Shown here: positions 1,192 through 37,341 of the stretch, piece by piece
How the letters are laid out: each line of letters begins with the position of its first letter
Position numbering within the stretch: the first letter of the stretch is position 1
From: a virus
Lineage: Duplodnaviria > Caudoviricetes
Strand: one strand, 5' to 3'
DNA: 56,211 nucleotides
Virus record (IMG/VR): IMGVR_UViG_3300010354_000111
Span: 1-56,211 of that record
Made by a program: the position numbers and the translations under genes
The notes under the pieces: model-generated
Told to the model about the DNA's origin: nothing
Databases searched by the model: none
The model's input: only the letters and a program-made list of their open reading frames with translations

Positions 1192-1212
1192 AGATCACCT
1201 CGTAAATAACAT

Positions 1213-1242
1213 ATTATATAGTAAACTAATCATCTAAATCAA
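1213..1242 (-). promoter_or_regulatory. Sigma70-type promoter for queE-folE
   Basis: Minus strand TTGATT-N18-TATAAT, about 20 nt upstream of the queE ATG; GAGGTG RBS. Confidence 0.55.
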
Positions 1243-4140: not shown

Positions 4141-4146
4141 AAAGTA

Positions 4147-5046: not shown

Positions 5047-5061
5047 AATAACTCCAAAATA

Positions 5062-5646
5062 TTAAAGTTGTTCTACTTCAAATAATTTATATTTGAATGC
5101 TGCTATTGCTGTAAAGTATTCTACGGTTGATGATGCTATTTCAAAATCTAATGCTTCTAAGGAAATTGGGAACAAGTCTTTGAATATTATATTTGTTTTA
5201 GGATTGTTTGTCGAGTCTAAAATAGTCAAAGTACCGTCCGAGTATGCCAAAGCTTCAGATTGGCCTGCTTGGTTTAAAACAAAAGGAAATCTATTTTGTC
5301 TGCCCTTAATGAATTGTGAAAATTGAGTATATTCTTTTGGAAACCCTAAAGCAGTTATCCATGAATACAATTCTAAATAATTTGACATATCTTCCGATAT
5401 CAAAAATCGTATTACAAAATCACCAAATTGCATTTTATCTCCTATTACTGGTCTATCTAAAAAAGGAGTAGGTTGAACAGCATGACCTATAGCAATAGCT
5501 GGTAAATTTGCAGACTGGCAGGTATATGAAGCATTTGGTAAATCTTTTATAGTAAATCTAAAAGCATTAGGCCTAAGAAAATCGTAGGTAGTAGGTCTAC
5601 TTGCTTCATAGTTTGCTTTTACTATATTAAGATTTGCTGTATACAT
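5062..5646 (-). CDS. gp3: Tail tube terminator / tail completion protein gp3
   Basis: FL.PN.FRF.I..LP, CQSANLP.I, I.EDM.NY.E..SWI, SDGTLTIL, FPISL; follows gp23. Confidence 0.85.
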   Translation of the reverse strand: MYTANLNIVKANYEASRPTTYDFLRPNAFRFTIKDLPNASYTCQSANLPAIAIGHAVQPTPFLDRPVIGDKMQFGDFVIRFLISEDMSNYLELYSWITALGFPKEYTQFSQFIKGRQNRFPFVLNQAGQSEALAYSDGTLTILDSTNNPKTNIIFKDLFPISLEALDFEIASSTVEYFTAIAAFKYKLFEVEQL

Positions 5647-5662
5647 TTACACCCTCCTGCAT

Positions 5663-5670
5663 TATTTATA
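5663..5670 (-). promoter_or_regulatory. T4-type late promoter TATAAATA
   Basis: Exact consensus just after the gp23 terminator and upstream of gp3. Confidence 0.8.
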
Positions 5671-5675
5671 AAGAC

Positions 5676-5700
5676 AAAAAAGGGGGAATTTCTTCCCCCT
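5676..5700 (-). terminator. Rho-independent terminator after the major capsid gene
   Basis: AGGGGGAA-gaaa-TTCCCCCT hairpin followed by a T-run on the minus strand. Confidence 0.85.
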
Positions 5701-5727
5701 TAAGTCCGATCTGGGTCGGCTCAATAA

Positions 5728-7023
5728 TTACATTAAATTGATAACACGTGTCTTGCGATAGTACTGATTGCGGTTAGCTGTGAAGCTATCTGCATCGTTA
5801 GCACCAGCAGATGTTGTTACATATGGATTAGCAATTAGACCATAACGTGTCTTAAAGCCAATCTTTGGTTGGAAGCTATCAGGATCAATAGCACGAACCA
5901 TTTGTAGTGGTACATATGGGCAATAGAATAGACCAGCATCATATGGGCTAGCACCCTTGTATCCTACTACGTAGAACTGATTAGCAGCGCCTAGGTTTCC
6001 TGTATATGGATCGATATAAACACGATAACGTCCATTTAGAACACCTGCAAAAGTGTTGCCTGTATCATCTACATTCAAGCTAGCATTTGTTGACAATGCT
6101 GGAGCATAGTCAAGAACGCCAGACATTGCTAATGCAGAAGCTACATCAGCTGAACATACGATGAAGTTACCCTTTCCTCTACGAGTATCTTGAGCAATGT
6201 GATTAGCATCGCGTTCGATATTGAATAGAAGACCCTTGAAACGTTCTACAGACCAACGTCCATTTGAATCAATGTCTAAGTCAAATGTTCCTGCGGATGC
6301 TGTGGCTGGTGATCCGACCTTAGCAACGCTATAGATTAAGCGAACGATTTCGCGATTAATCTCAAACATAAACTCTTGAGATAAAATATTTGAAAGCTCA
6401 GCTTCAGCATCAAGACCATGAATAGCTTTCAAGTCTTGTGCTAATTCAACTGTATATTCAGCTTTCAAAGCACGTGACTTAGCAGTTACTGTTGTCTTGT
6501 CGATTGCGAAAGACATTTCGTTGAAAGTAGAAGAACCTTCAACTGCTGCTAATGTATTAGCTGCGCCAATACCGATGGTTGCTAAAATATTAGCTACTGA
6601 ACCGTTATGACCAGTAGCACCAGAGAAGCTTGTATTTGCTTCGTTGTATAGAGCTTCAACACGAGTACTTGTGTTAGAACGAGTATCGTTAGAACCACCA
6701 TACATAGCACGCATTGCAAAAATCAAGCCTGTTGGGCCTGTCATTGGCTGGACACCGCAAATATCATATGCCATTAGATTAGGCATAGCACGACGTACTA
6801 AACCAATCATAATTGGATCATATTTTTGAATTGCTGCTGTGTCTTGAGCAATGTTGTTTGTATGAACTTCAAACAACGCACTACGCTCTTCACGTAATGC
6901 TTTCTCTTGATTCTCTAAAAGAACGGTAGTAACTGTTCTTTTATAAGCATCTTTAATTTGTGGAAGATCTGGATGATCTAGAATCTTTCCCCACTTTTGT
7001 TGTAAATTTTCGGTTAAAAACAT
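5728..7023 (-). CDS. gp23: Major capsid protein gp23
   Basis: LVRRAMPNLMAYDICGVQPMTGPTGLIFAMR, KSRALKAEYTVELAQDLKAIHGLDAE, FQPKIGFKTRYG. Confidence 0.98.
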   Translation of the reverse strand: MFLTENLQQKWGKILDHPDLPQIKDAYKRTVTTVLLENQEKALREERSALFEVHTNNIAQDTAAIQKYDPIMIGLVRRAMPNLMAYDICGVQPMTGPTGLIFAMRAMYGGSNDTRSNTSTRVEALYNEANTSFSGATGHNGSVANILATIGIGAANTLAAVEGSSTFNEMSFAIDKTTVTAKSRALKAEYTVELAQDLKAIHGLDAEAELSNILSQEFMFEINREIVRLIYSVAKVGSPATASAGTFDLDIDSNGRWSVERFKGLLFNIERDANHIAQDTRRGKGNFIVCSADVASALAMSGVLDYAPALSTNASLNVDDTGNTFAGVLNGRYRVYIDPYTGNLGAANQFYVVGYKGASPYDAGLFYCPYVPLQMVRAIDPDSFQPKIGFKTRYGLIANPYVTTSAGANDADSFTANRNQYYRKTRVINLM

Positions 7024-7059
7024 TTAGTTCTCCTTGAACGTAACCTTTAATTATTATGT

Positions 7060-8196
7060 TTAAGCACGTTTTACTGATCTAGAAAGTGCTTGTGCATAAG
7101 CGTCTACAGTGCTGTTCGTAAAATCGAACGACTGGCTAGCTTCAGATGTATCCTCAACTAAAGTTTGTTGTGAGCTAGTTGGTATGCTGACAGACTGTTT
7201 AGGGAAATAATTTTCCTTAATAACAGTAATCTTGTCAAAATATACATCCTCGCTATCAAAAGATATGCCTTCAACTAATTTAGTAAGCTTAGCTACTTCA
7301 GTATCGGCCATGTCTTTTGTAACACTTTCAAGAACTGCCTGGCGCTTAAGTTCAACGATTTCACTATTCAATTCAACGTTTGTATTGATAGCTTCGTTTA
7401 ACTTGTCTTCTAGTTCTTCTGCTTTAGTTTGTAGTTCACCGATTACATCATATTTTTCATCAGGAACTTCTACGTAATGTTCCTTGAATAGAGTCTTTAG
7501 GCCACTTATGAAATCTTCAGCGATTTCTGTGCGTAACCCGTTCTCTAATGCTAATTCATTTTCTTGCATCCATTGTTCAACAACATAATTGAGATAAGAA
7601 TCAATCTTTTCAACCATGCCTTCTTTTAATTCTACAATTTCCTGCTCGAATTTTTCTTCAAGAGAAGCTGCTACTTTCTCCATTTCAAAATTTACTCGGG
7701 CAATAACTGCAGCTTCAAAAATTGCTGTAGCTTTCTGCTTGAATTCTTCTGAAAGTCCTTCGCCGAAGATTGGAGACAAGTCAATAGCTTGTACTTCAGC
7801 TGGAGTATCTTCTTCAGTTTCTTCTTGATCAGATACTTCTACTTCCTCTTCCATCTGAGGCTTATTGCCTGTTGGATTTTTTCCTGTAGCTGAAGCTGTT
7901 AAATCTGCTACAGTTGAGAAATTAGGTGCAGCACCTGGACCCTTAGCTTGAGGTGGAGATGATTTAGGAGTAGAACTGGATGCTTTAGCACCTTGATTCT
8001 CGTCTGTTTCATCTCTAGTTTCAAAGGATGCTTTTTCTGAACTGCCTTGCATAGGATTAGAAGCATCTCCTGAATTAGCAGGACTCAGAGTGGTATCCTT
8101 TTTAACGGTATCTGCACCCATTTTATCAGCTTCGTCAAGAGCTGCTTTAGCTTCTACTTTGCTAAGCAATTCTTTAATTTTGCTTTCTACTGACAT
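7060..8196 (-). CDS. gp22: Prohead core scaffold gp22
   Basis: Acidic coiled coil, LSEEFKQKATAIFEAAV, YLNYVVEQWM.EN; between gp21 and gp23. Confidence 0.9.
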   Translation of the reverse strand: MSVESKIKELLSKVEAKAALDEADKMGADTVKKDTTLSPANSGDASNPMQGSSEKASFETRDETDENQGAKASSSTPKSSPPQAKGPGAAPNFSTVADLTASATGKNPTGNKPQMEEEVEVSDQEETEEDTPAEVQAIDLSPIFGEGLSEEFKQKATAIFEAAVIARVNFEMEKVAASLEEKFEQEIVELKEGMVEKIDSYLNYVVEQWMQENELALENGLRTEIAEDFISGLKTLFKEHYVEVPDEKYDVIGELQTKAEELEDKLNEAINTNVELNSEIVELKRQAVLESVTKDMADTEVAKLTKLVEGISFDSEDVYFDKITVIKENYFPKQSVSIPTSSQQTLVEDTSEASQSFDFTNSTVDAYAQALSRSVKRA

Positions 8197-22913: not shown

Positions 22914-25900
22914 TTATCCAGCGTGATAAATACAAGCTATTGTTTTAACTTCTGTTGGTGAGGAAAATGTTACTGCTTCTCTAGATTTGGCTACAGTATA
23001 ATTTCGGAAAAGATCATCAGCTTGTTTCATACCTTTGCCTCTCATAGAAGATGTAGTAATAAAATCTCCAATTTCTATGTCTCCGCCTTCGCCGCAAACA
23101 TTTATTTGACCCTCGCCTAAAGCATTGAAGGTAATTAATCTGTTGTTTTCTAATATTGCTTGATACTGAGGTTTGACTTTGAATACAGGAGTATTTACTT
23201 CTTTAGATTTAACTGTTGGTGTGGTAATTCCAGTTGCCTCATTATATGTATCTTCTATTTCTATAGTATTAGTATCTTCCTCAAACTCTCCTAAAGCAGC
23301 AGGTATATGTGTGGTTAAGTCAACATCTGAACTAATTACACCCACGGCTGCCTTTTGATTAGGCGCACTTGATAAAGAAACTTTAGTTATAGTATCACTT
23401 ATACCATGCCTTGCCACAACTTCTACATCAACTACTATATCTCCAAATTCAAAAGTTTCACTATAATCCAATAATGCATCATGGCCTCCTGTAAATGGAC
23501 CTACACCTGCTCCGGTCCCAGAAGTACCAACCCAATAAAGAGCGTAGCTACCAGTTGTAGCAGTTTGGGCAATTTGTACAGTATTTATAGCAGTGCCAGA
23601 TGTGTTCCTTGACTGAAAATAACCAGCCACAGCATTACCTGCAATTTCTGCGTATGATTTAATAACACTAGAGCCAGAATGAAAGAAGTATGTGCCAATA
23701 CCAAACGAAACACCTGCTAAAAGTGTTTGTGTTCTTACAGAATTTGGATTAGTAGCCGCCCATCTGAAAAATTCACCCGCATAATTTGCAGAACATAAAT
23801 CGAAACTTTGCACAATTCCTGCTGCACCACTAGTTGAATATGTACCGGTAGCAGCTCTACTTACCAACCCATAACCAAAAGTAGACGCAAGATTATTTAA
23901 ACCATGATTGAAATTGGAAGCACACGCCTCATTAACTGTGTTTAAAATGACGGCATTTACCCAATTTCCATCTATAGAATTGGTTCTACCCTTTAAACCA
24001 GCATAAGAAGCAGCCCCATTTAATCCAGCAAATCCTGCAAAACAATAACCATTATTATTAGAGATACTTCTAGCTATCGCCGTTACCCCTATAGAATCAT
24101 TTGTAGAAGTTTCAAATACAGAGACTGCAGGCATTGCTGTGCCAGTTGTTACATTAATAACTTGTGTGCCTGCACCAAGTGAAAAAGTTCTACCAGTGCT
24201 AGTACTTACACTACCACTTGCTAATCTATCCACTGCTAAAGTACCGGTTGAAATAACTGTTCCGTTGATACCAGAAGCAGATATTCTATCTGTCGTAATT
24301 GAACCTGTAGCAATCTTAGCTGTGGTTACCGCGCCAGCGGCAATTTGATCAGCAGAAACGGTTCCATTTACTAGTAATCCTCCATTTATATAAGCAGTGA
24401 ATTGTATCCATGTGCCAGTTGTACTATTCCAATACCTAGTTTGAGAAAAATTAGCAGAAGTATTATATAACGTCACCTCATCTCTATTTACTCTATTTGA
24501 AGGAGAAGAACCACCTACAATATCAGTAATAGCTTGATTTGCTTCAGCATCAGACCAAGCAGATCCAGCAATAGCTTTTGCAATTTTAAGATTTCCTCTA
24601 GCACCAGGAGAGCCATTTGTTCCGTTAGTACCATTAGTACCATTAGTACCATTTGTTCCGTTAGTTCCGTTAGTTCCACTTGTCCCTGCAAATCCTAAAG
24701 AATATGCTGTAGTTGAACTCCATGTTATAGTATTAGTGGCAGCCGAATCTGTATCTGAATAGGTTTGAGATACTCCCCATAATGTAGTCCCTGCTACAGC
24801 TGCTGGCGGTGTAGTAGACCATCCATTCAATGTAGCAGGTGCGGTGAAAGCACCAGTTGCCCATGTATATGAACTTGTACCTCCAGGAAATGTTGTAGGA
24901 ATAACAGCACTCCATCTATACATTTCTATTTCAGCAGTTCTTCTACCAGGAGAGCCATTTGTTCCGTTAGTACCATTTGTTCCATTGGTGCCATTAGTAC
25001 CACTAGTGCCATTGGTGCCATTAGTACCGTTAGTACCATTAGTACCATTAGCACCAGAAGAAGCAATAAGTGCCCAATAAGCGGATCCAGTAGGCGCCGG
25101 GGTTTGATTAGAAAAACTTACTGGAGATAAGAAACCTAAACCAAGACTTGTGCCAGCAGTAGTGCCTACTGCTGCGCCCCCTAAAGTTTCACTTAAGGTA
25201 AATGTGGTACTGCCGTTAGTGGCAGTAATATAATAAGTATTACCTTCGTAAGTATTTGCATAATTTGTTATGGCACCTGTTCCTGCTCTTATGCCTTCTA
25301 CTTTCATTCCAAAACCAACTACTAACGTATTAGCAGGAGCAGCTGCTCCCAAACTAAAGGTGCCACTAGCTCCTATCGTTACAGTTCCAATACTTTGTGA
25401 ATTTGACCTACCATAGGTTGCTAAATAACTATTACCTTGATATATTACAGCATCATTATTATTGTAAGAAGCACTTGCAGAATAAGTCCCTCTCCAATTA
25501 ACAGAAACTCCCCTAAAGGCTTTGGATATTGAAAATCTTCTAGTAATACTGGCATAACCAGATCTTGAAGCAGTTATATCAACAAAACCTACATTTGCTC
25601 CTAAACTTGTAACAGTTTGTGTCCTGCTAGTTACTGCTTGACTAGTAATAACATTAGTTTTTACAGCATTGAAAGTCCAATTTCCACTATCATCTGCACC
25701 ACCGTTTAAGACAGTTATAGTGGTATTAGCGCCAGCATAACTCAATACAGTACCAAAACCGTCACATGGTAGGGTTATAGAATCGTTATCTAAATATGCT
25801 ACGACACCATTTGTTCCATTAGTACCATTCGTTCCGTTAGTACCATTTGTTCCATTAGTACCGGTACTACCTCTTTCCAAAAATAAGTTCCAACTACCAG

Positions 25901-28694
25901 TAGATAATTTTACGTATGAGTTGCCATCTAATAATCTAACAACATTATTAGTAACTGCTCCTGCTGCATCTGCCGCTGCTGTACTATTATAACTACCATC
26001 TGGATTTGGGCCAGATTTAAATGTAACAGGCTGAGCACCGGATGCTGATGCTATTTGATCTAGTGTTCTAGTTACACCTAAAGAATCAGTTATACTTACA
26101 GTTCTAGCTATAGAACCAGAACTTAAAATTACATTACCAGTGGAGTCTCTTATAATTAAACCATTACTATTAATCATACCTGCAGTAATAACATTTGCCC
26201 CTACATGCTTGGCAGTTATTACATTTACACCCAAGGAATCCGTAGTGACAGAATTAGCTTGCAAAGCTCCAGCATAAATTGATAATGCAGCTATCTTAGC
26301 AGCGGTAATGGCATTTGCTTGAATTTTATCTGCAGATATAGAATTAGATTCTATAGCATTAGCTGTGACAGCATTAGCTGCTATTGTTAAAGCCGTAACA
26401 GCATTAGCAGCTATGGCGTTAGCTGTTACTGCGAATGCTTGAATGGCATTAGCATATACCGTATTAGCAGCTAATTGTACAGCTGTAATAGAATTAGCCG
26501 CTATTGTATTAGCGGTAACCGAATTAGCTTGCAATGCACCAGCATACACAGATAAGGCTGCTAATTGTACAGCTGTAATAGAATTGGCTGCTATTTTGTC
26601 TGACGTAATAGCATTAGATAATATAGCATTTGCATATACAGAATTAGCCGCTAATTGTACAGCTGTGATTGAATTAGCTGCTATATTATTTGCTGATACT
26701 GAATTAGCTTGTAAAGCGCCAGCATAAACGGACAATGCTGCAATTGTAACGGCAGTAACAGCATTAGCTGCTATCTTTCCTGCGGTTACTGCGCCAGCAG
26801 CTAAAGCATTGGCGTTGACCTCACCTGCTGCAATTGTAACAGCTGTAACTGCGTTAGCTGCTATCTTTCCTGCGGTTACAGCTCCCGCTGCTAGAGCATT
26901 CGCATTTACCTCACCTGCTGCTATTGTAACAGCTGTAACTGCGTTAGCGGCAATTTTACCAGCAGTTATAGCAAAAGCAGCTATACTATTAGCATCAACT
27001 GCACCAGCAGCTATAGTTGCAGTTGTAACAGCATTAGCTGCTATCTTTCCTGCAGTAACAGCAAGTGCAGATATTGCATTTGCATCTACTGCCCCTGCTA
27101 GTATTTTTACGGATGTGATAGAATTCGCTGCAATGGCATTAGCAGTTACAGCGTTGGCCTCTATAGCTAATGCTGTAACCGAATTAGCAGCTAATTTATT
27201 TGCAGTAATAGCAGAAGCTGCTATTTCGTTAGCTCCAATAGTACCAGCTTGTATTTTACCAGCTACTACAGAATTAGCTGCTAATAAATTAGCAGTAATT
27301 GCTCCTGCAGCTATTTCTGCTGATGTGATAGCTGCAGCAGCTATTTTTCCTGCAACAATTGCATTTGCGGCCACTTTATCAGATGTTACAGCATCTGCTG
27401 CTAACTCAGTTGTTCTTATAGCTCCAGCAGCTATTTTACCTATTATAATCGCGTTAGCTACAATTTTATCTGAAGTAATAATACCACTTTGTAAAGCAGC
27501 TGAATTTATTGTATTGGCAGCAAGTATAACATTACCTGATCCTGCTATGTAACTATTGAAACTATTCCATGCATTACCAACACTAATATACATTCCATTA
27601 TCACCACCTGTCCATAAAACAACACGACCATCAAAAAGATTAGCGGTAGGTAAAACGTTAGCTGATATTAATTGAATAGAGGCAATAGAATTTGCGGTGG
27701 GAGTAAAAGCAGATTGAGGATTCACCCAATCAGTTCCGTTCCATACGTATACTTGATTGTTGTAGTAAACTTGTCTACCAGTAAAATTATTTGTGGCAGG
27801 CAGAGAGTCTACAATCTGTACTGACGCTACAGAATTAGCATTCGGTGTAAATGCAGCAGTAGCTGTTATCCATGCAGTACCATTCCAAACATAAAGTCCA
27901 TTATCTGATTGATTAACTACAGTTTGACCAGTGACTGTTCCATTTGACTGTAGATTCGCTACTAAAGGAAGCGGGCCCGGAGTATTAGCAGATAAACTTG
28001 TAATTACAGTTGTGAAATTTGAAAGTGCAGTAACATTTACATTGGCTAACGCGTTGGATAAATTGCTTTGATCTAAAAGCTGAGCATTAGCTAAGGCATT
28101 ACTTAATGCTGATAAATTAACAGCGTTGACATTCGCTAAAGCATTATTTAAGGAACTGAGATTGACTGCATTAACATTTGCTAAAGCATTATTCAAAGCT
28201 GATAAATTAACGGCAGAAACATTGGCTAAAGCATTATTAAGTGCAGACAAATTAACAGCATTTACATTAGCTAACGCATTGTCTAGAGACGATAAATTCA
28301 CAGCAGCGACATTAGCTATAGCATTATTCAAAGCATTTAGATTCACTGCATTAACATTAGCTAACGCGTTGCTAAGATTAGAAAGATCTACGCCTATTAC
28401 TTGAGCAATTCTTAAATTAGTATAAGCGTTAGTTGCATCAAATTTTGAATCTAAAGTTGCAATAAACGCATTAGAAACACCTACATTAGATACGGCATTG
28501 TCCACATATGCTGTGGTAGCATACCCGGCAATTGTTATATTACCTACGTTACCACTAACTCCCCCTGCTAATAAGGCTAAAGCATAAACATTAGAAAAGT
28601 TTTGATTAATCTTATTAAATGCAGTGCGAATAGGATCGCCGGTGCCGTCATTTGCATAGGCACCTATATTAATATTGCTAATTGATAATGGCAT
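22914..28694 (-). CDS. Tail fibre 1 (1926 aa), paralogue of fibre 2
   Basis: Same N-terminus, repeat types and C-terminal domain as fibre 2, plus extra modules bounded by (GTN)n. Confidence 0.85.
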   Translation of the reverse strand: MPLSISNINIGAYANDGTGDPIRTAFNKINQNFSNVYALALLAGGVSGNVGNITIAGYATTAYVDNAVSNVGVSNAFIATLDSKFDATNAYTNLRIAQVIGVDLSNLSNALANVNAVNLNALNNAIANVAAVNLSSLDNALANVNAVNLSALNNALANVSAVNLSALNNALANVNAVNLSSLNNALANVNAVNLSALSNALANAQLLDQSNLSNALANVNVTALSNFTTVITSLSANTPGPLPLVANLQSNGTVTGQTVVNQSDNGLYVWNGTAWITATAAFTPNANSVASVQIVDSLPATNNFTGRQVYYNNQVYVWNGTDWVNPQSAFTPTANSIASIQLISANVLPTANLFDGRVVLWTGGDNGMYISVGNAWNSFNSYIAGSGNVILAANTINSAALQSGIITSDKIVANAIIIGKIAAGAIRTTELAADAVTSDKVAANAIVAGKIAAAAITSAEIAAGAITANLLAANSVVAGKIQAGTIGANEIAASAITANKLAANSVTALAIEANAVTANAIAANSITSVKILAGAVDANAISALAVTAGKIAANAVTTATIAAGAVDANSIAAFAITAGKIAANAVTAVTIAAGEVNANALAAGAVTAGKIAANAVTAVTIAAGEVNANALAAGAVTAGKIAANAVTAVTIAALSVYAGALQANSVSANNIAANSITAVQLAANSVYANAILSNAITSDKIAANSITAVQLAALSVYAGALQANSVTANTIAANSITAVQLAANTVYANAIQAFAVTANAIAANAVTALTIAANAVTANAIESNSISADKIQANAITAAKIAALSIYAGALQANSVTTDSLGVNVITAKHVGANVITAGMINSNGLIIRDSTGNVILSSGSIARTVSITDSLGVTRTLDQIASASGAQPVTFKSGPNPDGSYNSTAAADAAGAVTNNVVRLLDGNSYVKLSTGSWNLFLERGSTGTNGTNGTNGTNGTNGTNGVVAYLDNDSITLPCDGFGTVLSYAGANTTITVLNGGADDSGNWTFNAVKTNVITSQAVTSRTQTVTSLGANVGFVDITASRSGYASITRRFSISKAFRGVSVNWRGTYSASASYNNNDAVIYQGNSYLATYGRSNSQSIGTVTIGASGTFSLGAAAPANTLVVGFGMKVEGIRAGTGAITNYANTYEGNTYYITATNGSTTFTLSETLGGAAVGTTAGTSLGLGFLSPVSFSNQTPAPTGSAYWALIASSGANGTNGTNGTNGTNGTSGTNGTNGTNGTNGTNGSPGRRTAEIEMYRWSAVIPTTFPGGTSSYTWATGAFTAPATLNGWSTTPPAAVAGTTLWGVSQTYSDTDSAATNTITWSSTTAYSLGFAGTSGTNGTNGTNGTNGTNGTNGTNGSPGARGNLKIAKAIAGSAWSDAEANQAITDIVGGSSPSNRVNRDEVTLYNTSANFSQTRYWNSTTGTWIQFTAYINGGLLVNGTVSADQIAAGAVTTAKIATGSITTDRISASGINGTVISTGTLAVDRLASGSVSTSTGRTFSLGAGTQVINVTTGTAMPAVSVFETSTNDSIGVTAIARSISNNNGYCFAGFAGLNGAASYAGLKGRTNSIDGNWVNAVILNTVNEACASNFNHGLNNLASTFGYGLVSRAATGTYSTSGAAGIVQSFDLCSANYAGEFFRWAATNPNSVRTQTLLAGVSFGIGTYFFHSGSSVIKSYAEIAGNAVAGYFQSRNTSGTAINTVQIAQTATTGSYALYWVGTSGTGAGVGPFTGGHDALLDYSETFEFGDIVVDVEVVARHGISDTITKVSLSSAPNQKAAVGVISSDVDLTTHIPAALGEFEEDTNTIEIEDTYNEATGITTPTVKSKEVNTPVFKVKPQYQAILENNRLITFNALGEGQINVCGEGGDIEIGDFITTSSMRGKGMKQADDLFRNYTVAKSREAVTFSSPTEVKTIACIYHAG
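24612..24685 (-). repeat. (Gly-Thr-Asn)n 9-nt coding repeat, tract 3
   Basis: ccattagta/ccgttagta/ccatttgtt units. Confidence 0.85.
24952..25052 (-). repeat. (Gly-Thr-Asn)n 9-nt coding repeat, tract 2
   Basis: About 11 GTN-type triplets. Confidence 0.85.
25806..25863 (-). repeat. (Gly-Thr-Asn)n 9-nt coding repeat, tract 1
   Basis: About 6 GTN triplets. Confidence 0.85.
26230..27480 (-). repeat. ~10-aa/30-aa coding repeats of the fibre shaft
   Basis: AAGAVTAGKIAANAVTAVTIAAGEVNANAL occurs twice in tandem among many degenerate copies. Confidence 0.8.
28040..28390 (-). repeat. 42-nt (14-aa) coding repeat AVNLSALNNALANV, about 8 copies
   Basis: Double-heptad coiled-coil repeat; about 4-5 copies in fibre 2 at ~22530-22730. 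Confidence 0.85.
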
Positions 28695-28913
28695 TTACTT
28701 TTCTTTAGAATTAACCAATTGAATTAGTAAAGATTTTATATCAGATATATCTGATTTCATATTATTTATTTGATCAGATAAATCATCCACTCTGTTAGAA
28801 ATTAGTTTTCTGTTTTTGTGTTCTGCAAGTGATGCCCTATCTGTATTAAGTAAGGCATTGGAAATCAAGTCCTTTTTGAAACTTTTTTCATCTTCTATAG
28901 GTAGTAATATCAT
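28695..28913 (-). CDS. Small coiled-coil protein, 72 aa
   Basis: KD..SNALLNTD....L..I.N.KSDISDIKSLL, typical of the gene after VrlC-like genes in T4-like phages. Confidence 0.75.
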   Translation of the reverse strand: MILLPIEDEKSFKKDLISNALLNTDRASLAEHKNRKLISNRVDDLSDQINNMKSDISDIKSLLIQLVNSKEK

Positions 28914-30658
28914 ACTAGAGCTGTCGCTATAAGATTTTTAACTTTTGGATAAAGTGTGGTTGCAGAATCGCCGAAATAAACAATTTTTATTTGAAATTTA
29001 TTGAAATCATTAAAGGTTGTAATTTGCCCTCCAACATTTGATGAGTATGTTAGATTAGCAATACCATTATTTAAAATATTATCAGTATTCGTTATTCTAT
29101 AGGTTTCAGATATATAGGCAGTTTCACTACTACCGACGTATCGTTTTGGTGCAGAAATTACCGAATAACTAGAAGAATTAGAACTATTATATAATGGCAT
29201 AATTCTCCACGGCAGTTTATCTATAGATGAATCTATACCTGCATCGTTTTTACTCATAACTCTACAATAGACATCTATGTCTGTGCCATTTTTTCTATTA
29301 ACATCTAATTTTACTTCTAAACCAGTAGAATCAAAATCCGGGGCTAAACTAACTATTTTACTAATGTATTTAGAAAAAGCTATACCATTTCCTGGAGCTA
29401 TTTCAGATCCTCGTACATTCTCACTATAATTATCTATTAATGTATTTTGAGTAGAAACTGATAAGGTCGCCAAATCTAGAACAGGTGAAATATCTTTATT
29501 TTTATTTGTTAGTGTGAATCTTATTTTCAAATCACCTGCATCTCTCACTCTTCTTTTTGTAGTAAATTTAGTCTTGCCGAAATTAGGAATGTATTGATAA
29601 CTAGTAGCTCCAGAAGTAACGTCAAATGTTTGAGCTTCGTAAGATATAAAAGCATCTTCTCCAAAAATTTTATTATTAATTCTTAGATTTAAACTATCTA
29701 TTTCAAAAGTATTAGGTAATTTTAAATTTTCTCTAACAAAGGATTTAGTGCCTGTCTCAAATATAGCCTTATTAAATTTTACACAGATAGATTTACTAGG
29801 TTCTTCAATCTGACTACCAGTAGTAGACATTTTGAATAGTTTTCCCATGCCTGGTTGTTTAGCAGAAGTAGCTAATGCAATTCTTGCACCTCCTATTGTA
29901 CCTAATCCAGACAAAGCACCAGTCGTATCTATTTCTGCTCCTGTTTTATTAGCATATATAGTGTAATTTTCATCTGGTGCTATTACACATAATGCAAATT
30001 CTTTTCCTGGAGTCAACCATATAGGATAAGCAAATGAGAATTTGGTGGATCCACCAAGACCTTCAGCAGGATTGGCAGGAACATTTATATCCGCTGCATT
30101 TCTTGTTGCTTGTGACCCTGCTATTATTTGATCGTTAGGAATACCTTCACTTGTTTCTCTTAGTTCTATACGAACCGGTGTATTGTTAGAAGTAGATTTG
30201 GTTGCAAAGAAAACTTCAACTGAACTAATAAAAATACCATCCTTATATTTGGCTTGATCTATCACAAAAGTTTGTGCTAGTGGAGCAACTATGCCAGTAA
30301 CAGTTGTAGTAGGTGCAGTTGTAGATGTTCTTGTAGCTTGCCCAGGAGCTACTATAGCTATATCGCCAGATGCTACCACTCGTTGATATGCTGCAGTTGA
30401 AGGAGTGGCTGGTACGTCTATAACAAAATCTATTCTAACTTTTCCAAGTGAAGATAGATAATTGGTGGCAGGTGTATCATATATAACTATGATTCCTTCT
30501 GCCGTGCCTGTGCTATCTGTTACTAAAGGATCGCCGAATTTTTTATTCAAAGGAGCAACTAGAGATGAATAATCTAGATTGCCTATTTTAACCTTGATAA
30601 GTTGCCCAGGTGCATTTGACGTTAACTTAAAAGTTTGTTCAATTAGTACTGTTGCCAT
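28910..30658 (-). CDS. Baseplate/virion protein matching the C-terminal part of DUF4815/VrlC-like proteins
   Basis: PLAQTF....GIFISSVEVFFATKS, TKF.F..PI.L.PG.E.A, SKYISK.V.L, F..FQIKIV....PK.KNL.A.A. Confidence 0.72.
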   Translation of the reverse strand: MATVLIEQTFKLTSNAPGQLIKVKIGNLDYSSLVAPLNKKFGDPLVTDSTGTAEGIIVIYDTPATNYLSSLGKVRIDFVIDVPATPSTAAYQRVVASGDIAIVAPGQATRTSTTAPTTTVTGIVAPLAQTFVIDQAKYKDGIFISSVEVFFATKSTSNNTPVRIELRETSEGIPNDQIIAGSQATRNAADINVPANPAEGLGGSTKFSFAYPIWLTPGKEFALCVIAPDENYTIYANKTGAEIDTTGALSGLGTIGGARIALATSAKQPGMGKLFKMSTTGSQIEEPSKSICVKFNKAIFETGTKSFVRENLKLPNTFEIDSLNLRINNKIFGEDAFISYEAQTFDVTSGATSYQYIPNFGKTKFTTKRRVRDAGDLKIRFTLTNKNKDISPVLDLATLSVSTQNTLIDNYSENVRGSEIAPGNGIAFSKYISKIVSLAPDFDSTGLEVKLDVNRKNGTDIDVYCRVMSKNDAGIDSSIDKLPWRIMPLYNSSNSSSYSVISAPKRYVGSSETAYISETYRITNTDNILNNGIANLTYSSNVGGQITTFNDFNKFQIKIVYFGDSATTLYPKVKNLIATALV

Positions 30659-30667
30659 TTATTTTCC

Positions 30668-31324
30668 TTAGGGTTTTCCATCACCGAACACTACAACACC
30701 TCTTTTATTGTTAGCAAAAGAAAACTCCACCGCTCCTTCTATTGAATCAGTTAATGCAGAACTATTAAAAGTATTACTATCATATGGTGTACTAGTTAAA
30801 TAATTGTTAGCTAATGCAAATTCTACGCCAGTTGTTATGTTTAATCTAGTAAAAACGTTATTAGAATTAAGTCTAGTGTCTATCCAGTTAGACAATGATA
30901 AAGCATTTTGACTATCTGTGCTTGATGAACCATATAATGTATTAGCTGTAGCAAAATTTTTCTCATGGACTAATATTTCAAAACTACTACTTACTCTACT
31001 ATTGGCGCCTACATTATCTTGGAATATATTCCAAGGTTCTAGTACTGAAGCAGATACGTAGTTATTTCCCGTATTATAAATTATACTATTGGCAGCATAT
31101 CTTATTGCAGGAACACTATCTAAACCTAATAATTTATATCTATCTGCTACTAAAATTTCTGAAATCGATGACATAGAATTAGCTAACCAATTTTTAGTTT
31201 CATTAAATACATTACCGTTAGGTGCGCTGTTCTGTTCCTCTCTAAGAAGTTGTCCAGTCAAATCTATATAAGCCTGGGATATAACATTCGATCTAAGAGC
31301 TTCTAAAATTGGTGAAATAGGCAT
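30668..31324 (-). CDS. Hypothetical virion protein, 218 aa
   Basis: Well-packed ORF between the two DUF4815-like halves. Confidence 0.7.
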   Translation of the reverse strand: MPISPILEALRSNVISQAYIDLTGQLLREEQNSAPNGNVFNETKNWLANSMSSISEILVADRYKLLGLDSVPAIRYAANSIIYNTGNNYVSASVLEPWNIFQDNVGANSRVSSSFEILVHEKNFATANTLYGSSSTDSQNALSLSNWIDTRLNSNNVFTRLNITTGVEFALANNYLTSTPYDSNTFNSSALTDSIEGAVEFSFANNKRGVVVFGDGKP

Positions 31325-31333
31325 ATCTGATCC

Positions 31334-34300
31334 TTATTTTCTATTTAACAGCATATCAAAATAATTTTTAAGTTTCATACTATCATATGTATTAGCTAAC
31401 TTATTAGTAATATACCATAAATACATATCCATTTTTTGACCTTGAATAACTGCACTTAAAATTTCTAAAGCTTCTTCTGTAGTAATAATTTTTTCATTTA
31501 TCCCCCTAAATAAAGCTCCACCGTCTCCCCATATGGACGAAGTTCCAAAATTATTAACTTGATAGGTACCATCGCCATCTACAAATAGGTTGAAAACGTC
31601 CTTATTTTGTACTAAAGATTTTTTATATACACTTAAAGGTTTAACATTTTTTATCCAAGGCATTTTTCTTGGAATTTCGTTTGGTTCATAACTATAATAT
31701 TCACCATTTATAATCAACGGATGATTTATTGTCCCGAATGGTTTTGTCTTATTTGGACTAACTAATTCGCCTGTGAATACTGATTTAACTTTAAATTTTA
31801 CAGTATTAATTTTAGTACCATCATGATTTAAAATTTTGTCCCCTACCTTTATATCTTTGATAGCTTTTTTCCTGCCATTCGCTAAAGTAATTTTACTATT
31901 TTCTTCAAAACACAATCCAAAAAGTACTGCTGTTAAAAACGCTGCTCCTTCTACTATACCTGCCCAGGCAGCAGCTGCAAAACTAGTTTCAGCTACGGCT
32001 ACTGCTCCATACGCTACAGAAAACTCAGAAGCTGCTGCTATAGCAGCTGCCTCCGCTGCAGTTAATGAAACTCCTAATAATGCATAATCTGCCGTTGCTG
32101 CAAGAGCAGCTGCACTTGCATCGAAAGCAACACCTCCTGCATTAAATGGGTCTAATACACCTCCTGGTTGGCTTAGCGTTAGCTCTGCCTGTGCGGCAGC
32201 TTCAGCAGATCTATCAACTATTTGAACTCCGTCTGCGGAATCCTTACCAAAAATTAAACCTTTACCAAATTCATACCCTCTGTATAATCCGCTAGCTAAT
32301 AATACTGGATTTGAATATGCAACTACTCCTGGAGGTTGTACTCCACCGGGATTAGGTGTCACTCTATCGGGTCCTCCGCCTGCAGACGTTACAGTATTTT
32401 CAACCTGTTGAATAAAAGTTTCTTCTCCTGTTTGATTAAATGTTAAAAGATCAGTTTTAATACTAAAATCAGGCGCACTAGTTGAATATAAACTGAATGC
32501 TGCAGCAGAAAAAGCTGGTAACAATTCTCCTTGTGTAGGTATACAAGTCGAGAAAGGATTTCTTATATCATTTGAAGCATACCCTGTAAAATCATCAACT
32601 AAAATACCAGTTTTAAAATAAAGATTGGCCTGGCTTCCCCCTTCAAACACTTGATTATTTAAAGCTATGATATCTAAACCTTGTTTCTTAACTCTTCTCT
32701 CTAATGACCCCAATCTAGTATCTAGATTCTCTATTTTTTTCATAGTATATCTAGGGGAATCATTGTAATAAATTTTGATATCAAAAGCAGACTGTGTAAA
32801 GGGTGGAACTACGAGAGTCGCTATAAGCTGCTGATCTCTACCAGAAATATCTTTTGAGGCATTAGGTACTAAAGAGGGTACCCCTTTATCTAAATAAAAA
32901 TTATATCCGTCACGATCTTTGGACACTGCTCTATTTTGAACATATAATCTATCTATTCTAGGCACATAATAATCATAATCTACTTGTAGGGCATTAGGTA
33001 GAACAGGATTGGGTCTAGGTGTATTAATACCATTATACATTAAACTAGCATTACTTGTATTATTTTTGATTGGTCTAAAATCTAAATAATTCCTCATATT
33101 ATAAACTGCACCATTAAGCGCAGATCTAAAATAAGGAATATTATTTTGTATACTAGCAGGATATGATGTAAAATCCACAACACCGGTTCTATTACTATTG
33201 AAATAATCTAGTATAACTACAACATTACCTGGATTATATGTGTTAATATTACCTTTATATGTTAAACTTCCTGTAACTATGTATGCGTCATATTGCCCAT
33301 TAAATGTGTCGTATAGTAAAGAATTTTCCTTAGGTATTTTAAACCAAACACTAGTATTAGATACAGGAACATTCGTTGAACCTGACAGAGCTTGATATAC
33401 AAGACCATTACTAACAACTATGTCATTGGTAACATAACTATTTGTAGTAGTATATGATCCATGATAAGTATTAGATCCAATCTTATAGATACCATTGAAT
33501 CTATAGATATCAGCTATGTATAAATCTATTGGAGTATTAGATCCTATTATTTCTGCCTTAACTGGAGTATTCGTCACTAATGTTTTAGTGGATCTAGGAA
33601 ACTCACTATTGTAAATGACAGCATTTACATCTACTGATCCAGTAACTAAAAGTGTTGAAAAAGTCAATGTTAACTGCTTCTTAGTTGCATCCAAATCCAT
33701 AATAATATTATCTACATCTACTGGTTGGCCTGCTGACAAGGTTCCCGAACTAGATGATCTTACTATAATCATGTAATATTGTCTTTTAACAGCATTTGAC
33801 AAAGTACCTGAACCTACAAATTCCTCATCACCAGTCAAAGTAATAGTAACCGTACTAGCAGATACTGTCCTATTTTCATAGGTTTTATTATAGTAAATCC
33901 TAATATTATTTACGTCTTTCAAATAATTAGAAGTTATAGGATAAAAAGCCTGTTCTTTAGTTCCTGCATCGTAGACTTTTAAAAGATTATTAGCATCTAA
34001 CCCAAAAGTAGTATTAACATTAGCAAAAAATGTAGGAGTAGAATATGTTCCTAAATTATTTTCTGCCGAGGTAAAAGGACTATTGACTCCTATTAAAGAT
34101 TTTACATTTTTCCAATCTCTGTTAGCTTCAAGATAAGTATAATACCAATATAGTCTATATCTTCTATTGTTTCCTTCCCCCCCATCGTAAACTATATGTT
34201 TAACAATAACACCACCAACTCTTGTAGAAGTACTCATAGCAGTTCTATCAGTAGTACTATGTGCTTCTAATGTATCATATAGTCTAATAGATGATTGGTC

Positions 34301-35671
34301 CACAAATCCAAATGAAGGATGATTAATTAAAGCATAATTATTTTCTGTAGTATCTAGAAATTGATCTTCTATAGATAAAAAATCTTTAGATTTAGGGACT
34401 AAAATTTCAGTTGGCCCTACAGTTTCTATTACTTGTCCACCTATTACGACCTTACCAGGCAAAATATCAAATTTAGCATACGCATCATCAAAAGTAGATC
34501 CCTTTGCTGATAATCTAAAAGGTAAGATATCATAATTTCCTGATTCATCAAAAGTTCTTTCAGCTAGTATTTCTCTTAATTTAATAGGTAAAGTATCTCT
34601 TGCCTGTTCTACAAATTCTTTAATCCCCTTATCAAATCTAACGATTTCAATATGATCATCAGTAGTATCTGGTAATTTACTAGTATTTAAATCTACAACT
34701 GCAATTTCAAGAGTAACTTTTAATCTATCGGCACCTGGGGCTAAGTAATTTGAACTATAGAACGCAGGGTCCAATAAAGTTTCGTCGTCATTATAATCTA
34801 TTAAAGTTTCCACATATTTTAATATAACTGACTTAGTTGGATATGCAGTATACTTATCAGGTACTATAGACTGTTCATTTAAATCTATAAAATATCCTTT
34901 CTTGTAATAAGTACCATTTGTAACAGTAACAATATTGGTAGGAGTAGTATTTTTTCTATAAAATGATAAAGTTGTTGAAGAAGCTAAAACATCGCCTATA
35001 TTTTTATTTAATCTTATAAGAGTATCAGATACAATTTCAGTAACAACCAGCCCTTGTGTAAAGTTTGAAGACATAGATAATAATTGATCTCCTACTTTAA
35101 TAGCAGCAGATTTAGATGCTAAAAGTATTTCATTATCTTCAGCTCCAGCTGTTCCAGTACCAAAAACTATAACATCTGCCGCAGCTATTTCGGATGCAAT
35201 GAAACTAGCATTTTTTGCTATAGCGTCCGTAATGTTATTATAAAAGTACAAAGTTTCACTAGAGCCAAAATCCACAGGGCCATCTATTCTCTCCAAAGTC
35301 ATAACTAAGGTAGGAGGATCACCAACTGCAGGATCATCTGCATTGTATGTAAATTTTACTTTTCCTACAGTATTACTAGTTGCTCCTGTAATGTAAGTAT
35401 TAGCATAAGTTGTAATATTAGCACCAAGACCAGATAATTTTACTGATCTTACTTCATCATTTATTACGAAACTTATAGGATCATTAGTGACTCTACTTCC
35501 TTCACCTACAACACTATCGCCTAATCTAGTAAACTGATTATGAGTTATAGATTGAACTTGGTTAAGTTCCCTTGATTGGATAGCAACACCAGGTTTATAC
35601 AATATTCTTTGAAAATTCTTTTTGCTATCATAGTCATCATAATAGGGAAAACTTTGTAAATTGACAGTCAT
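31334..35671 (-). CDS. DUF4815/VrlC-like structural protein (N-terminal part) with C-terminal Hint domain
   Basis: PYYDDYD..KNF.RIL.KPG..IQSRELNQ.QS, APGADRL, LAERTFDESG.Y, RYTM..I..L..R, FKTGILVD.F; then CFEENSKITLANG..KAIKDIKVGD. Confidence 0.8.
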   Translation of the reverse strand: MTVNLQSFPYYDDYDSKKNFQRILYKPGVAIQSRELNQVQSITHNQFTRLGDSVVGEGSRVTNDPISFVINDEVRSVKLSGLGANITTYANTYITGATSNTVGKVKFTYNADDPAVGDPPTLVMTLERIDGPVDFGSSETLYFYNNITDAIAKNASFIASEIAAADVIVFGTGTAGAEDNEILLASKSAAIKVGDQLLSMSSNFTQGLVVTEIVSDTLIRLNKNIGDVLASSTTLSFYRKNTTPTNIVTVTNGTYYKKGYFIDLNEQSIVPDKYTAYPTKSVILKYVETLIDYNDDETLLDPAFYSSNYLAPGADRLKVTLEIAVVDLNTSKLPDTTDDHIEIVRFDKGIKEFVEQARDTLPIKLREILAERTFDESGNYDILPFRLSAKGSTFDDAYAKFDILPGKVVIGGQVIETVGPTEILVPKSKDFLSIEDQFLDTTENNYALINHPSFGFVDQSSIRLYDTLEAHSTTDRTAMSTSTRVGGVIVKHIVYDGGEGNNRRYRLYWYYTYLEANRDWKNVKSLIGVNSPFTSAENNLGTYSTPTFFANVNTTFGLDANNLLKVYDAGTKEQAFYPITSNYLKDVNNIRIYYNKTYENRTVSASTVTITLTGDEEFVGSGTLSNAVKRQYYMIIVRSSSSGTLSAGQPVDVDNIIMDLDATKKQLTLTFSTLLVTGSVDVNAVIYNSEFPRSTKTLVTNTPVKAEIIGSNTPIDLYIADIYRFNGIYKIGSNTYHGSYTTTNSYVTNDIVVSNGLVYQALSGSTNVPVSNTSVWFKIPKENSLLYDTFNGQYDAYIVTGSLTYKGNINTYNPGNVVVILDYFNSNRTGVVDFTSYPASIQNNIPYFRSALNGAVYNMRNYLDFRPIKNNTSNASLMYNGINTPRPNPVLPNALQVDYDYYVPRIDRLYVQNRAVSKDRDGYNFYLDKGVPSLVPNASKDISGRDQQLIATLVVPPFTQSAFDIKIYYNDSPRYTMKKIENLDTRLGSLERRVKKQGLDIIALNNQVFEGGSQANLYFKTGILVDDFTGYASNDIRNPFSTCIPTQGELLPAFSAAAFSLYSTSAPDFSIKTDLLTFNQTGEETFIQQVENTVTSAGGGPDRVTPNPGGVQPPGVVAYSNPVLLASGLYRGYEFGKGLIFGKDSADGVQIVDRSAEAAAQAELTLSQPGGVLDPFNAGGVAFDASAAALAATADYALLGVSLTAAEAAAIAAASEFSVAYGAVAVAETSFAAAAWAGIVEGAAFLTAVLFGLCFEENSKITLANGRKKAIKDIKVGDKILNHDGTKINTVKFKVKSVFTGELVSPNKTKPFGTINHPLIINGEYYSYEPNEIPRKMPWIKNVKPLSVYKKSLVQNKDVFNLFVDGDGTYQVNNFGTSSIWGDGGALFRGINEKIITTEEALEILSAVIQGQKMDMYLWYITNKLANTYDSMKLKNYFDMLLNRK
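31540..31912 (-). other. Hint (Hedgehog/intein-like) domain
   Basis: Block A C-F....I.LANG..K.I.DIKVGD.I; block B T.NHPL; block F VFNLFVDGDGTYQVNN; no terminal His-Asn. Confidence 0.8.
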
Positions 35672-35685: not shown

Positions 35686-37341
35686 TTAAAATTCTATAAC
35701 TATATGAATGTTTTCTGCTTGATCGTTGGAACGGGAAATTTTACTACGATTTTCTATGTACAAAATTTTTCCCGTATCCTTTGATACCTCAGGTTGAGAT
35801 ATACTTAAAATTCTTCCAGATGCTCCGGATTTAACACCTGTTATTCTCTCGCCTACACAAAAATCAGTATTTCCAGTTAATACTTGAGGAGGTAGCACAT
35901 ATCTAACAATAACGTTAGGCGATTGGACATTTGCACTTAAAACATAAGCATTACTGAAACCTATATTACCAGTGATTCTTTCATCATTTACAAATGTGCC
36001 TGCTAATAATTGGCAATTTACTGTATATGCCGCATCCAAAGTAATAGTATTAGCAACTAAACCATTTGGTGTTTTTGGATTTTTTATTAATCCTATTTTT
36101 CTATAATCATTAACTACAGGGAAATCGCCTCCTCCCTCCGCATAATTTAATCTACTGTTAATCATTACATATCGAGCACCTAATGTTTCATAAAGATCTC
36201 TTCCATGTCCTAATACTGGACTAAGTATTGGGACTAGGTTAGCATTGAATCCCCCACCCGATACTATGGCTTTAGCATTAGTATATCCGACACCTGCTGT
36301 AATTATATTAACACCTGTTATAGCATTAGAAACTACTATAGGCGTACCTGAAAATCCCGTACCATCACCCAATATTTGTAATGTTGCATTTTCAGGATAA
36401 CCTGCACCAGCATCTGCTATATCAAAACTATTGATTGTACCACCGATAGCATTATTAAAAACATCATTATCTATAGATACTGGCATATATTCTAGTGTTA
36501 AGAACTTTAATATATCTGCATCACTTAAGGAATAGATATATTTCCATTTATATCCATCAGATGTTTGAAATATATTTATGGATGTGCCACCGGGTTTAGA
36601 TGTTGATATTGCTCCATTATTATTATCAATACAAAGATAAACTTGATATTGTGGTAAAACTAGAACATAAAACGGATGATTAAGAAGATTGGCATTTTTA
36701 TCACTATATCTCGAATATGCTGTACCTGTTGCCCAATCATATCTTGGAACAACTAGTTTAACATCCCCTGGACTTATTTTTTTCATGGCAATCATTTCTT
36801 GCCATGCTTCTTTTTCTGCAGCAGAACAATTTATAATGTCTGGAATATCATAAGTAGCAGGATCATCTGAAGTAACAGTGACAGTATATGTTCTTATATT
36901 ACTACCTACATAACTATTAGCTGACGTAAAAGCTATAGTGTAGGTATATGTGCCCTCGTATATAAAAAATTGATTAGTATCCGTATTGGATCCGAGAGAA
37001 TCTAATCTATAAATGTCAGTTTGAGGATCTGGAGAAAATGCGCCTATAGGTCCAGTTTTTGTAACTGTCACATTAGAATTAGGTGGGCCACCAGTCACTC
37101 TCACTCGTATATCATTAAATGGGGCTATTGAATAGACGCCTCTACCTGTAGTAATCGGATTAACTACAGGATCAAATAAATTACCAGAGGGAACACTTAC
37201 GTCAGTATTTTGAATTGCTGGCCAAGTAAGAGACCTACCAACAAAGGCATAAATTTTGGTATTTGCTTCATCAACAACCGAATTGACAAACTCTTGTGCT
37301 GTTGCTACTCTAAAATTAGTTGTTAATAATTGTTGAGCCAT
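35686..37341 (-). CDS. gp8: Baseplate wedge gp8
   Basis: MIAMKKI....VVPRYDW..G, VY.CIDNN.G..ST.KP, T.DGYKWKY.Y, G.ILYIENR..I.R..DQ.E.I.IVIEF. Confidence 0.88.
   Translation of the reverse strand: MAQQLLTTNFRVATAQEFVNSVVDEANTKIYAFVGRSLTWPAIQNTDVSVPSGNLFDPVVNPITTGRGVYSIAPFNDIRVRVTGGPPNSNVTVTKTGPIGAFSPDPQTDIYRLDSLGSNTDTNQFFIYEGTYTYTIAFTSANSYVGSNIRTYTVTVTSDDPATYDIPDIINCSAAEKEAWQEMIAMKKISPGDVKLVVPRYDWATGTAYSRYSDKNANLLNHPFYVLVLPQYQVYLCIDNNNGAISTSKPGGTSINIFQTSDGYKWKYIYSLSDADILKFLTLEYMPVSIDNDVFNNAIGGTINSFDIADAGAGYPENATLQILGDGTGFSGTPIVVSNAITGVNIITAGVGYTNAKAIVSGGGFNANLVPILSPVLGHGRDLYETLGARYVMINSRLNYAEGGGDFPVVNDYRKIGLIKNPKTPNGLVANTITLDAAYTVNCQLLAGTFVNDERITGNIGFSNAYVLSANVQSPNVIVRYVLPPQVLTGNTDFCVGERITGVKSGASGRILSISQPEVSKDTGKILYIENRSKISRSNDQAENIHIVIEF

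Follow-up and report, generated by a model that had tools for sequence, protein, structure and literature searches.

The stretch analysed here, hereafter the window, is a 56-kb viral fragment of 56,211 nucleotides (IMG/VR record IMGVR_UViG_3300010354_000111), with a G+C content of about 33% and an estimated completeness of 33%. Its minus strand carries an open reading frame (ORF) for a VrlC-type baseplate protein of an uncultured T4-like phage, and the subject of this study is the module of 192 amino acids (aa) with which this protein ends, composed of a Hint core and a helical tail (Table 1). An earlier note on this DNA had described about 75 apolar residues that end exactly at the first Cys of a Hint domain, a Hint that keeps Cys1 and the TxxH motif and has no His-Asn ending, and about 65 aa thereafter. 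All of this was found to be accurate: a 72-aa segment free of Lys and Arg runs up to Cys1254, the block B motif reads TINH, the last strand carries GTSS, and a helical tail of 66 aa precedes a TAA stop codon. The last 192 residues are best read as a non-splicing Hint autoprocessing module that resembles those of Hedgehog proteins and bacterial intein-like (BIL) domains.

Table 1. Position of the module, its carrier gene and the surrounding features in the window.
Feature	Coordinates	Strand	Basis or remarks
Whole ORF, 1445 aa	31334..35671	-	VrlC N-part, linker, Ala-rich segment, Hint, helical tail
Hint core, residues 1254-1379	31535..31912	-	AlphaFold2 and Foldseek
Cys1254, Hint residue 1	31910..31912	-	Cys in 195/195 terminal modules and 216/216 aligned rows
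Block B motif TINH (T1314, H1317)	31721..31732	-	family columns: T 203 + S 13, H 216, of 216
DGDGTY, block-F-like (D1367, T1369)	31562..31579	-	family columns: D 201/216, T 213/216
GTSS, last Hint strand, at the place of the intein His-Asn	31535..31546	-	family columns
Four-helix tail, 66 aa	31337..31534	-	AlphaFold2; TAA stop after it
Ala-rich hydrophobic segment, residues 1182-1253	31913..32128	-	composition and hydropathy; AFDASAAALAAT...AVLFGL
Gly/Pro-containing linker, residues 1090-1181, poorly conserved	32129..32404	-	alignment to VrlC of phage S-BM1 stops at residue 1089
VrlC/DUF4815 N-part, residues 1-1089	32405..35671	-	blastp to S-BM1 VrlC residues 6-1250; tblastn against phages; synteny
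218-aa ORF between the VrlC parts	30668..31324	-	own TAAGGA-type ribosome-binding site; homologue in locus L040 only
582-aa ORF, VrlC C-part	28910..30658	-	phrog_358 positions 1405-1628 of 2056, E 4.8e-52
gp8-like baseplate wedge gene, directly upstream	35686..37341	-	phrog_438 E 1.7e-102, Pfam Phage-Gp8; synteny anchor
Fibre-like ORF, 1926 aa, downstream	22914..28694	-
Ala-rich antisense ORF, 83 aa	31836..32087	+	opposite the Ala-rich segment
Ala-rich antisense ORF, 247 aa	26809..27552	+	opposite the fibre-gene repeats

Pfam models of the Hint type cover just the first 40-70 residues of the Hint in the window, and each of them stays below its curated cut-off in the window protein: Hom_end_hint reaches 28.5 bits (cut-off 32.1), Hint (PF01079) 21.2-23.7 bits (29.7), with positions 10-50 of the 213 in the profile covered, and Vint (PF14623) 18.1-21.4 bits (27). 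For this reason, the fold was tested by structure. AlphaFold2 (AF2) was run on the last 296 aa with an alignment of 45 family members, and the predicted local distance difference test (pLDDT) score, averaged over blocks of ten residues, was 84-98 in the Hint, 79-93 in the tail and 32-75 in the Ala-rich part. The tail was modelled as helices at positions 236-243, 249-260, 264-277 and 282-294 of the fragment. A second run, with an alignment enriched in relatives of the hydrophobic type, left the picture of Hint and tail unchanged, and gave pLDDT values of 31-38 for the roughly 30 residues before the Cys; in the modelled part of the linker the pLDDT was mostly below 50.

A Foldseek search against the PDB yielded 26 matches at E≤0.001, and all matches listed have the Hint fold. 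The top match was BIL2 of Tetrahymena (6y75, E 3.7e-8, TM-score 0.69 on the target), followed by Vint (8r2c), the Prp8 and gp41-1 inteins (6mwy and 6riz among the entries) and the BIL domain of C. thermocellum (2lwy), while Hedgehog (1at0) was matched at E 5e-4. A profile search of the PDB sequences agrees for block A. The ESM Atlas returned viral hypothetical proteins and Vint/Hint clusters only, and the look-alikes in BFVD were solely named ‘Hint domain containing protein [uncultured Caudovirales phage]’. In the predicted structure the C-terminal domain is a Hint fold, as the earlier note had assumed. Pfam showed no endonuclease domain in the window protein, nor any match of the Peptidase_S74 type at E≤1.

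The module belongs to a large family. A HMMER scan with the last 296 aa against 1.84 billion representatives retrieved 368 proteins at E≤1e-3, 132 of them at E≤1e-10 and 21 at E≤1e-30, which is far above chance. A hidden Markov model built on the module, starting at the Cys and reaching the C-terminus, was then run over 150 listed representatives and the ORFs of 80 viral loci. Terminal-type modules were found in at least 195 viral proteins; in 195 of 195 the Cys comes first and the module is C-terminal. The length from Cys to stop ranges from 165 to 273 aa with a median of 221, against 192 in the window, where the tail is some 30 aa below the family median and does not have the amphipathic basic helix in which most relatives end. 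Cys1 and the His of TxxH are present in every aligned domain row, and the other catalytic columns are nearly as constant (Table 1), at an overall family identity of about 30%. The columns equivalent to the end of an intein are occupied differently: the first by Thr (189/216), the second, at the place of His, by Thr, His or Ser (109, 70 and 12 rows), and the third by Ser (169 rows), with Asn in only 9. This pattern points to strong selection on the residues of an N-to-S acyl shift. The near-complete lack of this Asn excludes both splicing and C-terminal cleavage through a succinimide for the module family, and the motifs indicate that only N-terminal acyl-shift chemistry is possible for the module, with Cys1254 as the predicted shift site and Leu1253-Cys1254 as the predicted scissile bond.

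The family is essentially confined to viral sequence. The module is carried by 80 viral loci (85 of 162 candidates were confirmed), and a single-pattern scan of prokaryotes revealed two loci, both on contigs of metagenome-assembled genomes and each in one genome among 185,579 species. As far as the domain content of the carriers tells, the module is a portable end-piece placed on unrelated virion proteins. The N-part of VrlC is the carrier in 13 of the 150 representatives. Other carriers, from 30 proteins scanned, contain Big_12, He_PIG, Big_9, LRR_5, Cadherin-like, Peptidase_S8, Pro-kumamolisin and collagen domains, and three of these 30 relatives (P0043, P0021 and P0071, with 29.5, 29.7 and 28.0 bits) pass the Vint gathering score. 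A further scan of 18 proteins added a gp5-like hub N-terminus (L055), virion structural proteins (L066 and L070) and a tail-fibre-assembly-like protein (L060). Both this portability over many virion proteins and the split of the VrlC carrier described below had been overlooked in the earlier note. In the literature, with subscription journals outside the coverage, no account of phage structural proteins that end in a Hint module was found.

Several members of the family have unusual arrangements. Tandem arrays of several Hint domains are present in P0005, P0007, P0122 and L044 (ORF 470..7669), the last of these being carried by a VrlC-N protein of 2400 aa. The internal Hints of these arrays end in ...LVHNKGG, that is, they keep His-Asn, have no +1 nucleophile and are directly followed by the next Cys, while the T/H-S ending and the helical tail occur on the last Hint only. 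The module-bearing ORFs of L055, L056 and L058 are short (574-591 aa), and about 5 kb downstream these loci have a gp8 gene together with the beginning of VrlC. The L055 protein consists of a gp5-like hub/tail-lysozyme N-terminal domain (phrog_694, phrog_430), a poly-Pro/Gly stretch and the Hint-tail module, so the module is also borne by the central spike protein of some phages. The N-terminal sequences of P0062, P0096 and P0129 look alike, by eye only.

The Ala-rich segment in front of the Cys has 29 Ala and, besides Lys and Arg, contains no His, Asn, Gln or Pro. Kyte-Doolittle hydropathy averaged over 19 residues peaks here, at up to 1.95, the maximum of a protein whose mean is -0.18. Six acidic residues are spaced through the segment, a Glu or Asp every 9-13 positions, a regularity reached by about 0.2% of random placements, and there is no uninterrupted apolar run of 20 residues. 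Judged by this composition, the segment is not a classical transmembrane helix. An amphipathic helix was also considered and rejected, as the hydrophobic moment lies below that of about 93% of shuffled segments. The 83-aa antisense ORF opposite this segment, like the 247-aa one opposite the repeats of the fibre gene, is most likely a by-product of GCN-rich codon runs and not a gene.

The earlier note had also expected the hydrophobic segment and the Hint to be linked in homologues. Among the 192 modules with enough upstream sequence, the region before the Cys was poly-Gly/Pro in 113, hydrophobic (a 19-residue mean of at least 1.6) in 26, another Hint ending in ...VHN in 13 and of another kind in 40, and the commonest residue at position -1 was Gly (78/192). 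The hydrophobic segment is therefore not a family-wide feature, and the expected linkage fails at this level. It holds in the clade of the window module, which comprises 14 modules (support 96) in a FastTree phylogeny of 174 distinct modules. Over the whole tree the hydrophobic label changes 15 times, compared to a mean of 24.5 and a minimum of 20 in 200 shuffles. By inspection, a hydrophobic stretch abuts the Cys in 14 of the 14 clade members, nine of which reach the threshold, and it usually ends in G-[FW]-[FLI] just before the Cys. The clade has short tails (modules of 165-206 aa) and five kinds of carriers, namely VrlC, Big_12, LRR_5 with Big_9, Peptidase_S8 and Pro-kumamolisin. In these 14 members the Hint appears to move together with the hydrophobic stretch as one cassette; the tree behind this reading was made quickly, the hydropathy threshold is arbitrary, and relatives may share labels through descent. 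Tail length follows a similar division: an amphipathic basic helix closes the 157 long-tail modules and is missing from the 17 short-tail ones, the window clade included, which have hydrophobic upstream segments.

The carrier in the window is identified as VrlC by its N-part, which matches Pfam DUF4815 (PF16075) with 117.5 bits (cut-off 30) and phrog_358 at positions 5-486 of 2056 (E 1.5e-108). VrlC/DUF4815 is a baseplate protein of cyano- and pelagimyophages, and the order gp8, VrlC, small ORF and long fibre is that of Synechococcus phage S-BM1, with its gp8, VrlC, small ORFs and long fibre. However, VrlC of S-BM1 is one protein of 2403 aa, whereas the window has three ORFs, the first of them with the Hint module. 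The 582-aa ORF aligns to residues 1640-1870 and 2211-2346 of the S-BM1 protein. The 218-aa ORF, without any Pfam or PHROG match, is probably the middle piece of VrlC, considering its position and size. These alignments indicate that VrlC, a single gene in cyanophages, is split at the module into three ORFs in the window.

The same arrangement recurs in other loci. VrlC-N and the module form one ORF of 849-2400 aa in 30 of the 80 loci, the 849-aa case being the fragmented L074, and adjacent ORFs in three more, so that gp8, VrlC-N with module and VrlC-C are arranged in this way in 33 of 80. In 15 of these 33 the very next ORF encodes VrlC-C separately, with a length of about 720-765 aa in the intact cases. 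In L013, L033 and L032 the end of the N-part and the start of the C-part map side by side on S-BM1 VrlC, at about 1290-1500. In L005, L006 and L022 VrlC is cut again, a VrlC-N ORF of 1200-1343 aa being followed by a separate ORF of 394-442 aa; in L006 this second ORF begins with a match to phrog_358 (positions 1164-1242) and closes with the Hint-tail module.

Both junctions between the three ORFs of the window (30659..30667 and 31325..31336, minus strand) consist of TAA, a GGA-containing spacer and ATG, which argues for separate, translationally coupled genes. The ORFs of 1445, 218 and 582 aa share one frame, with TAA and three codons between each. Read-through or recoding across the three ORFs was considered and rejected, since the frames differ in the closest relative, L040, and both junctions have TAAGGA-type ribosome-binding sites; given the frames of L040, the common frame in the window is taken as coincidence. 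According to the part of PMC7029224 available, VrlC is a core gene of pelagimyophages and replaces T4 gp7 in a two-layered baseplate; in the main text of that paper the word ‘intein’ is absent and ‘hint’ occurs once.

Downstream of the VrlC pieces, at the place of the ‘YadA domain structural protein’ of S-BM1, lies the fibre-like ORF of 1926 aa. Near its N-terminus it has repeat units of about 12 aa of the NALANVNAVNLS type; two further kinds of internal repeat are Ala/Asn/Ile-rich units of the ‘AANAVTAxKIAA’ type, arranged in a long run, and GTN triplets (GTNGTNGTN...), which form several blocks and look collagen-like.

Among known systems, Hedgehog and Hog proteins (1at0, PF01079) share this layout. 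In agreement with the Hedgehog-like architecture drawn in the earlier note, the module forms the C-terminus of a precursor, has an N-terminal nucleophile (Cys1), TxxH and the essential block-F Asp, lacks a C-terminal Asn, continues after the Hint into a helical extension (60-100 aa) and would be limited to N-terminal thioester chemistry. It differs in that the carrier is a phage virion protein and the Pfam Hint gathering score is not reached. Because the Pfam Hint profile is covered at positions 10-50 only, the tail of the module is considered unrelated in sequence to that of Hedgehog. Hedgehog passes its N-terminal product to a sterol, a nucleophile that is implausible in a bacterial host.

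BIL domains and the BUBL domain BIL2 (2lwy, 6y75/6tmm), the best structural matches, are likewise non-mobile Hints without endonuclease in variable surface or secreted proteins, and they cleave or transfer instead of splicing, as we infer for the module. Its Hint fold, lack of an endonuclease, non-splicing ending and variable, non-housekeeping carriers place the module with the BIL domains in general. A-type BIL domains keep His-Asn. In the solved BIL2 structure the C-terminal Asn was mutated (N143A, as stated in the entry title), whereas the equivalent position is T/H-S here. Unlike BIL domains, the modules of this family share a conserved tail of their own, occupy the C-terminus without exception and occur essentially on viral contigs only. 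It also departs from class 1 inteins, as GTSS instead of His-Asn is followed by the tail and a stop codon with no C-extein, and as the module is terminal and not inserted inside a host protein. Phage tail fibres and spikes are known to carry C-terminal intramolecular chaperone autoproteases (Peptidase_S74 type) that remove themselves; the likeness to these is a functional analogy only, with fold and chemistry unrelated. In the split inteins and ‘fractured genes’ of environmental phages, as far as the accessible part of PMC2677866 describes them, a phage gene is also divided at a Hint-type element, but in the window the first ORF contains the whole Hint and the ORFs have no endonuclease gene between them.

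Taken at face value, the motifs suggest the following course of events. In the folded Hint, Cys1254 would attack the carbonyl of Leu1253 in an N-to-S acyl shift, and the thioester would be resolved, most simply by water, which would detach a Hint-tail product of about 22 kDa. Mature VrlC-N would then comprise 1253 residues, with the Ala-rich hydrophobic segment as its new C-terminus, and the 218-aa and 582-aa products would supply the remainder of VrlC non-covalently. If the chaperone domains that cleave themselves off the C-termini of phage fibres are a guide, the module might be a temporary cap that aids assembly or solubility, and would most likely remove itself after assembly; in the window clade, the cap would mask a sticky hydrophobic end until that moment. 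That the Hint performs N-terminal acyl-shift chemistry of some kind is, in our judgement, highly probable, while plain hydrolytic release of the Hint-tail is a matter on which we are evenly divided. The poly-Gly/Pro linkers (113/192) and the Gly at position -1 fit, as expected, a flexible spacer before a self-cleaving domain, and a bulky domain at the tip end of the gp5-like spike argues for its removal.

A number of points weigh against release of the module by hydrolysis. Cleavage is deduced from sequence for every member of the family, and each functional statement made here about the module is an inference of this sort. Hydrolysis is no more than the default fate of the thioester: in the available part of PMC8616854, BIL2 transfers its N-extein to lysines and not to water, and Hedgehog uses a sterol. 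The conserved helical tail would have no assigned role under plain release, and the function as chaperone or cap is suggested by analogy only. Finally, tblastn with the window module and its relative P0033 found no match in 50,697 GenBank phage records, so no cultured phage was found to carry the module.

A different possibility, which we entertain tentatively, is that the module dispenses its thioester, delivering the C-terminus of the virion protein covalently to a partner amine or to a host or phage lipid, with the conserved tail picking the acceptor. In the window, this might re-join the split VrlC halves or cap the hydrophobic C-terminus, and the clade of 14 might unite the short-tail Hint with the hydrophobic stretch and the G-aromatic-hydrophobic motif in one functional cassette.

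In the form in which the acceptor is a protein, the Hint would act as a single-turnover ligase that attaches the C-terminus of VrlC-N to a baseplate partner, at a Lys or the N-terminus of the latter. Obvious acceptor candidates are the 218-aa or 582-aa pieces, and the split protein would be re-joined or the baseplate cross-linked. The best structural match, BIL2, makes Lys isopeptide conjugates without ATP (PMC8616854, in the part available), 33 of 80 loci have the module exactly at the VrlC split, 15 of these with the C-part encoded directly after it, and the conserved tail could dock a partner. However, many proteins that end in this module are not followed by a split partner, and the next ORFs begin with Met-Pro, Met-Ala or Met-Ser, so that they offer no N-terminal Cys for joining of the native-chemical-ligation type. 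On balance this transfer to protein seems unlikely.

It seems likewise unlikely that no processing takes place and that the Hint-tail stays on the baseplate as a structural or binding domain, its catalytic-looking residues being kept for folding. The Pfam Hint scores of the window protein, which are all below threshold, would suit this explanation, but the invariance of Cys1 and of the TxxH His over 216 rows at such low identity would not, and flexible poly-Gly/Pro spacers are better suited to a catalytic domain than to a structural one.

We are more doubtful about a Hedgehog-like capping or membrane device, the proposal of the earlier note, in which the tail would recruit a small nucleophile, for example a lipid, and the hydrophobic C-terminus would be lipid-modified or membrane-inserting during assembly at the host membrane or entry. 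The Hedgehog layout, with a Hint without Asn and a helical extension, is in line with such a device, as is the hydrophobic stretch, usually with a conserved G-[FW]-[FLI] at its end, that meets the Cys throughout the window clade on all five carrier kinds; the pairing of short tails with a hydrophobic upstream segment, and of long tails with an amphipathic basic helix, hints at a membrane-affine element. Nevertheless, only 26 of 192 modules have a hydrophobic segment upstream, the segment in the window is interrupted by Glu or Asp at regular intervals, with no 20-residue apolar run and a low hydrophobic moment, and the tail has no sequence similarity to the sterol-recognition region of Hedgehog, the Pfam Hint match being limited to positions 10-50. 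In addition, the available part of PMC7029224 describes VrlC as an integral stand-in for gp7 in the two-layered baseplate and not as membrane-piercing.

The position of the module at the junction of gene halves that are continuous in cyanophages could also recall a former VrlC intein that lost splicing and broke the gene, but such a remnant, whether decayed or split, is very improbable and was rejected, since the Hint is complete inside the first ORF with blocks F and G, no homing endonuclease is present, the same module and tail are conserved at the ends of many unrelated proteins, and HN[CST] is absent from the first 90 residues of the 15 downstream VrlC-C ORFs and of the 218-aa and 582-aa ORFs of the window, which therefore have no C-intein start, as a split intein would need.

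Three outcomes of Hint chemistry are known: inteins splice, Hedgehog hands its product to a sterol, and BIL and BUBL domains cleave or conjugate. The family described here represents a fourth setting, being large, almost wholly viral and always C-terminal, with a tail of its own, on baseplate, hub, fibre and other virion proteins. The gene for VrlC, which serves as a core marker for pelagi- and cyanomyophages, is divided in an entire group of such phages. If the module transfers its cargo, phage particles would possess a covalent mode of assembly that needs no ATP, and protein engineering might gain a compact tag that cleaves itself or ligates. If it cleaves, many uncultured aquatic myoviruses would have mature virion proteins shorter than their genes suggest, which would bear on structural and proteomic annotation and on models of the two-layered VrlC baseplate.

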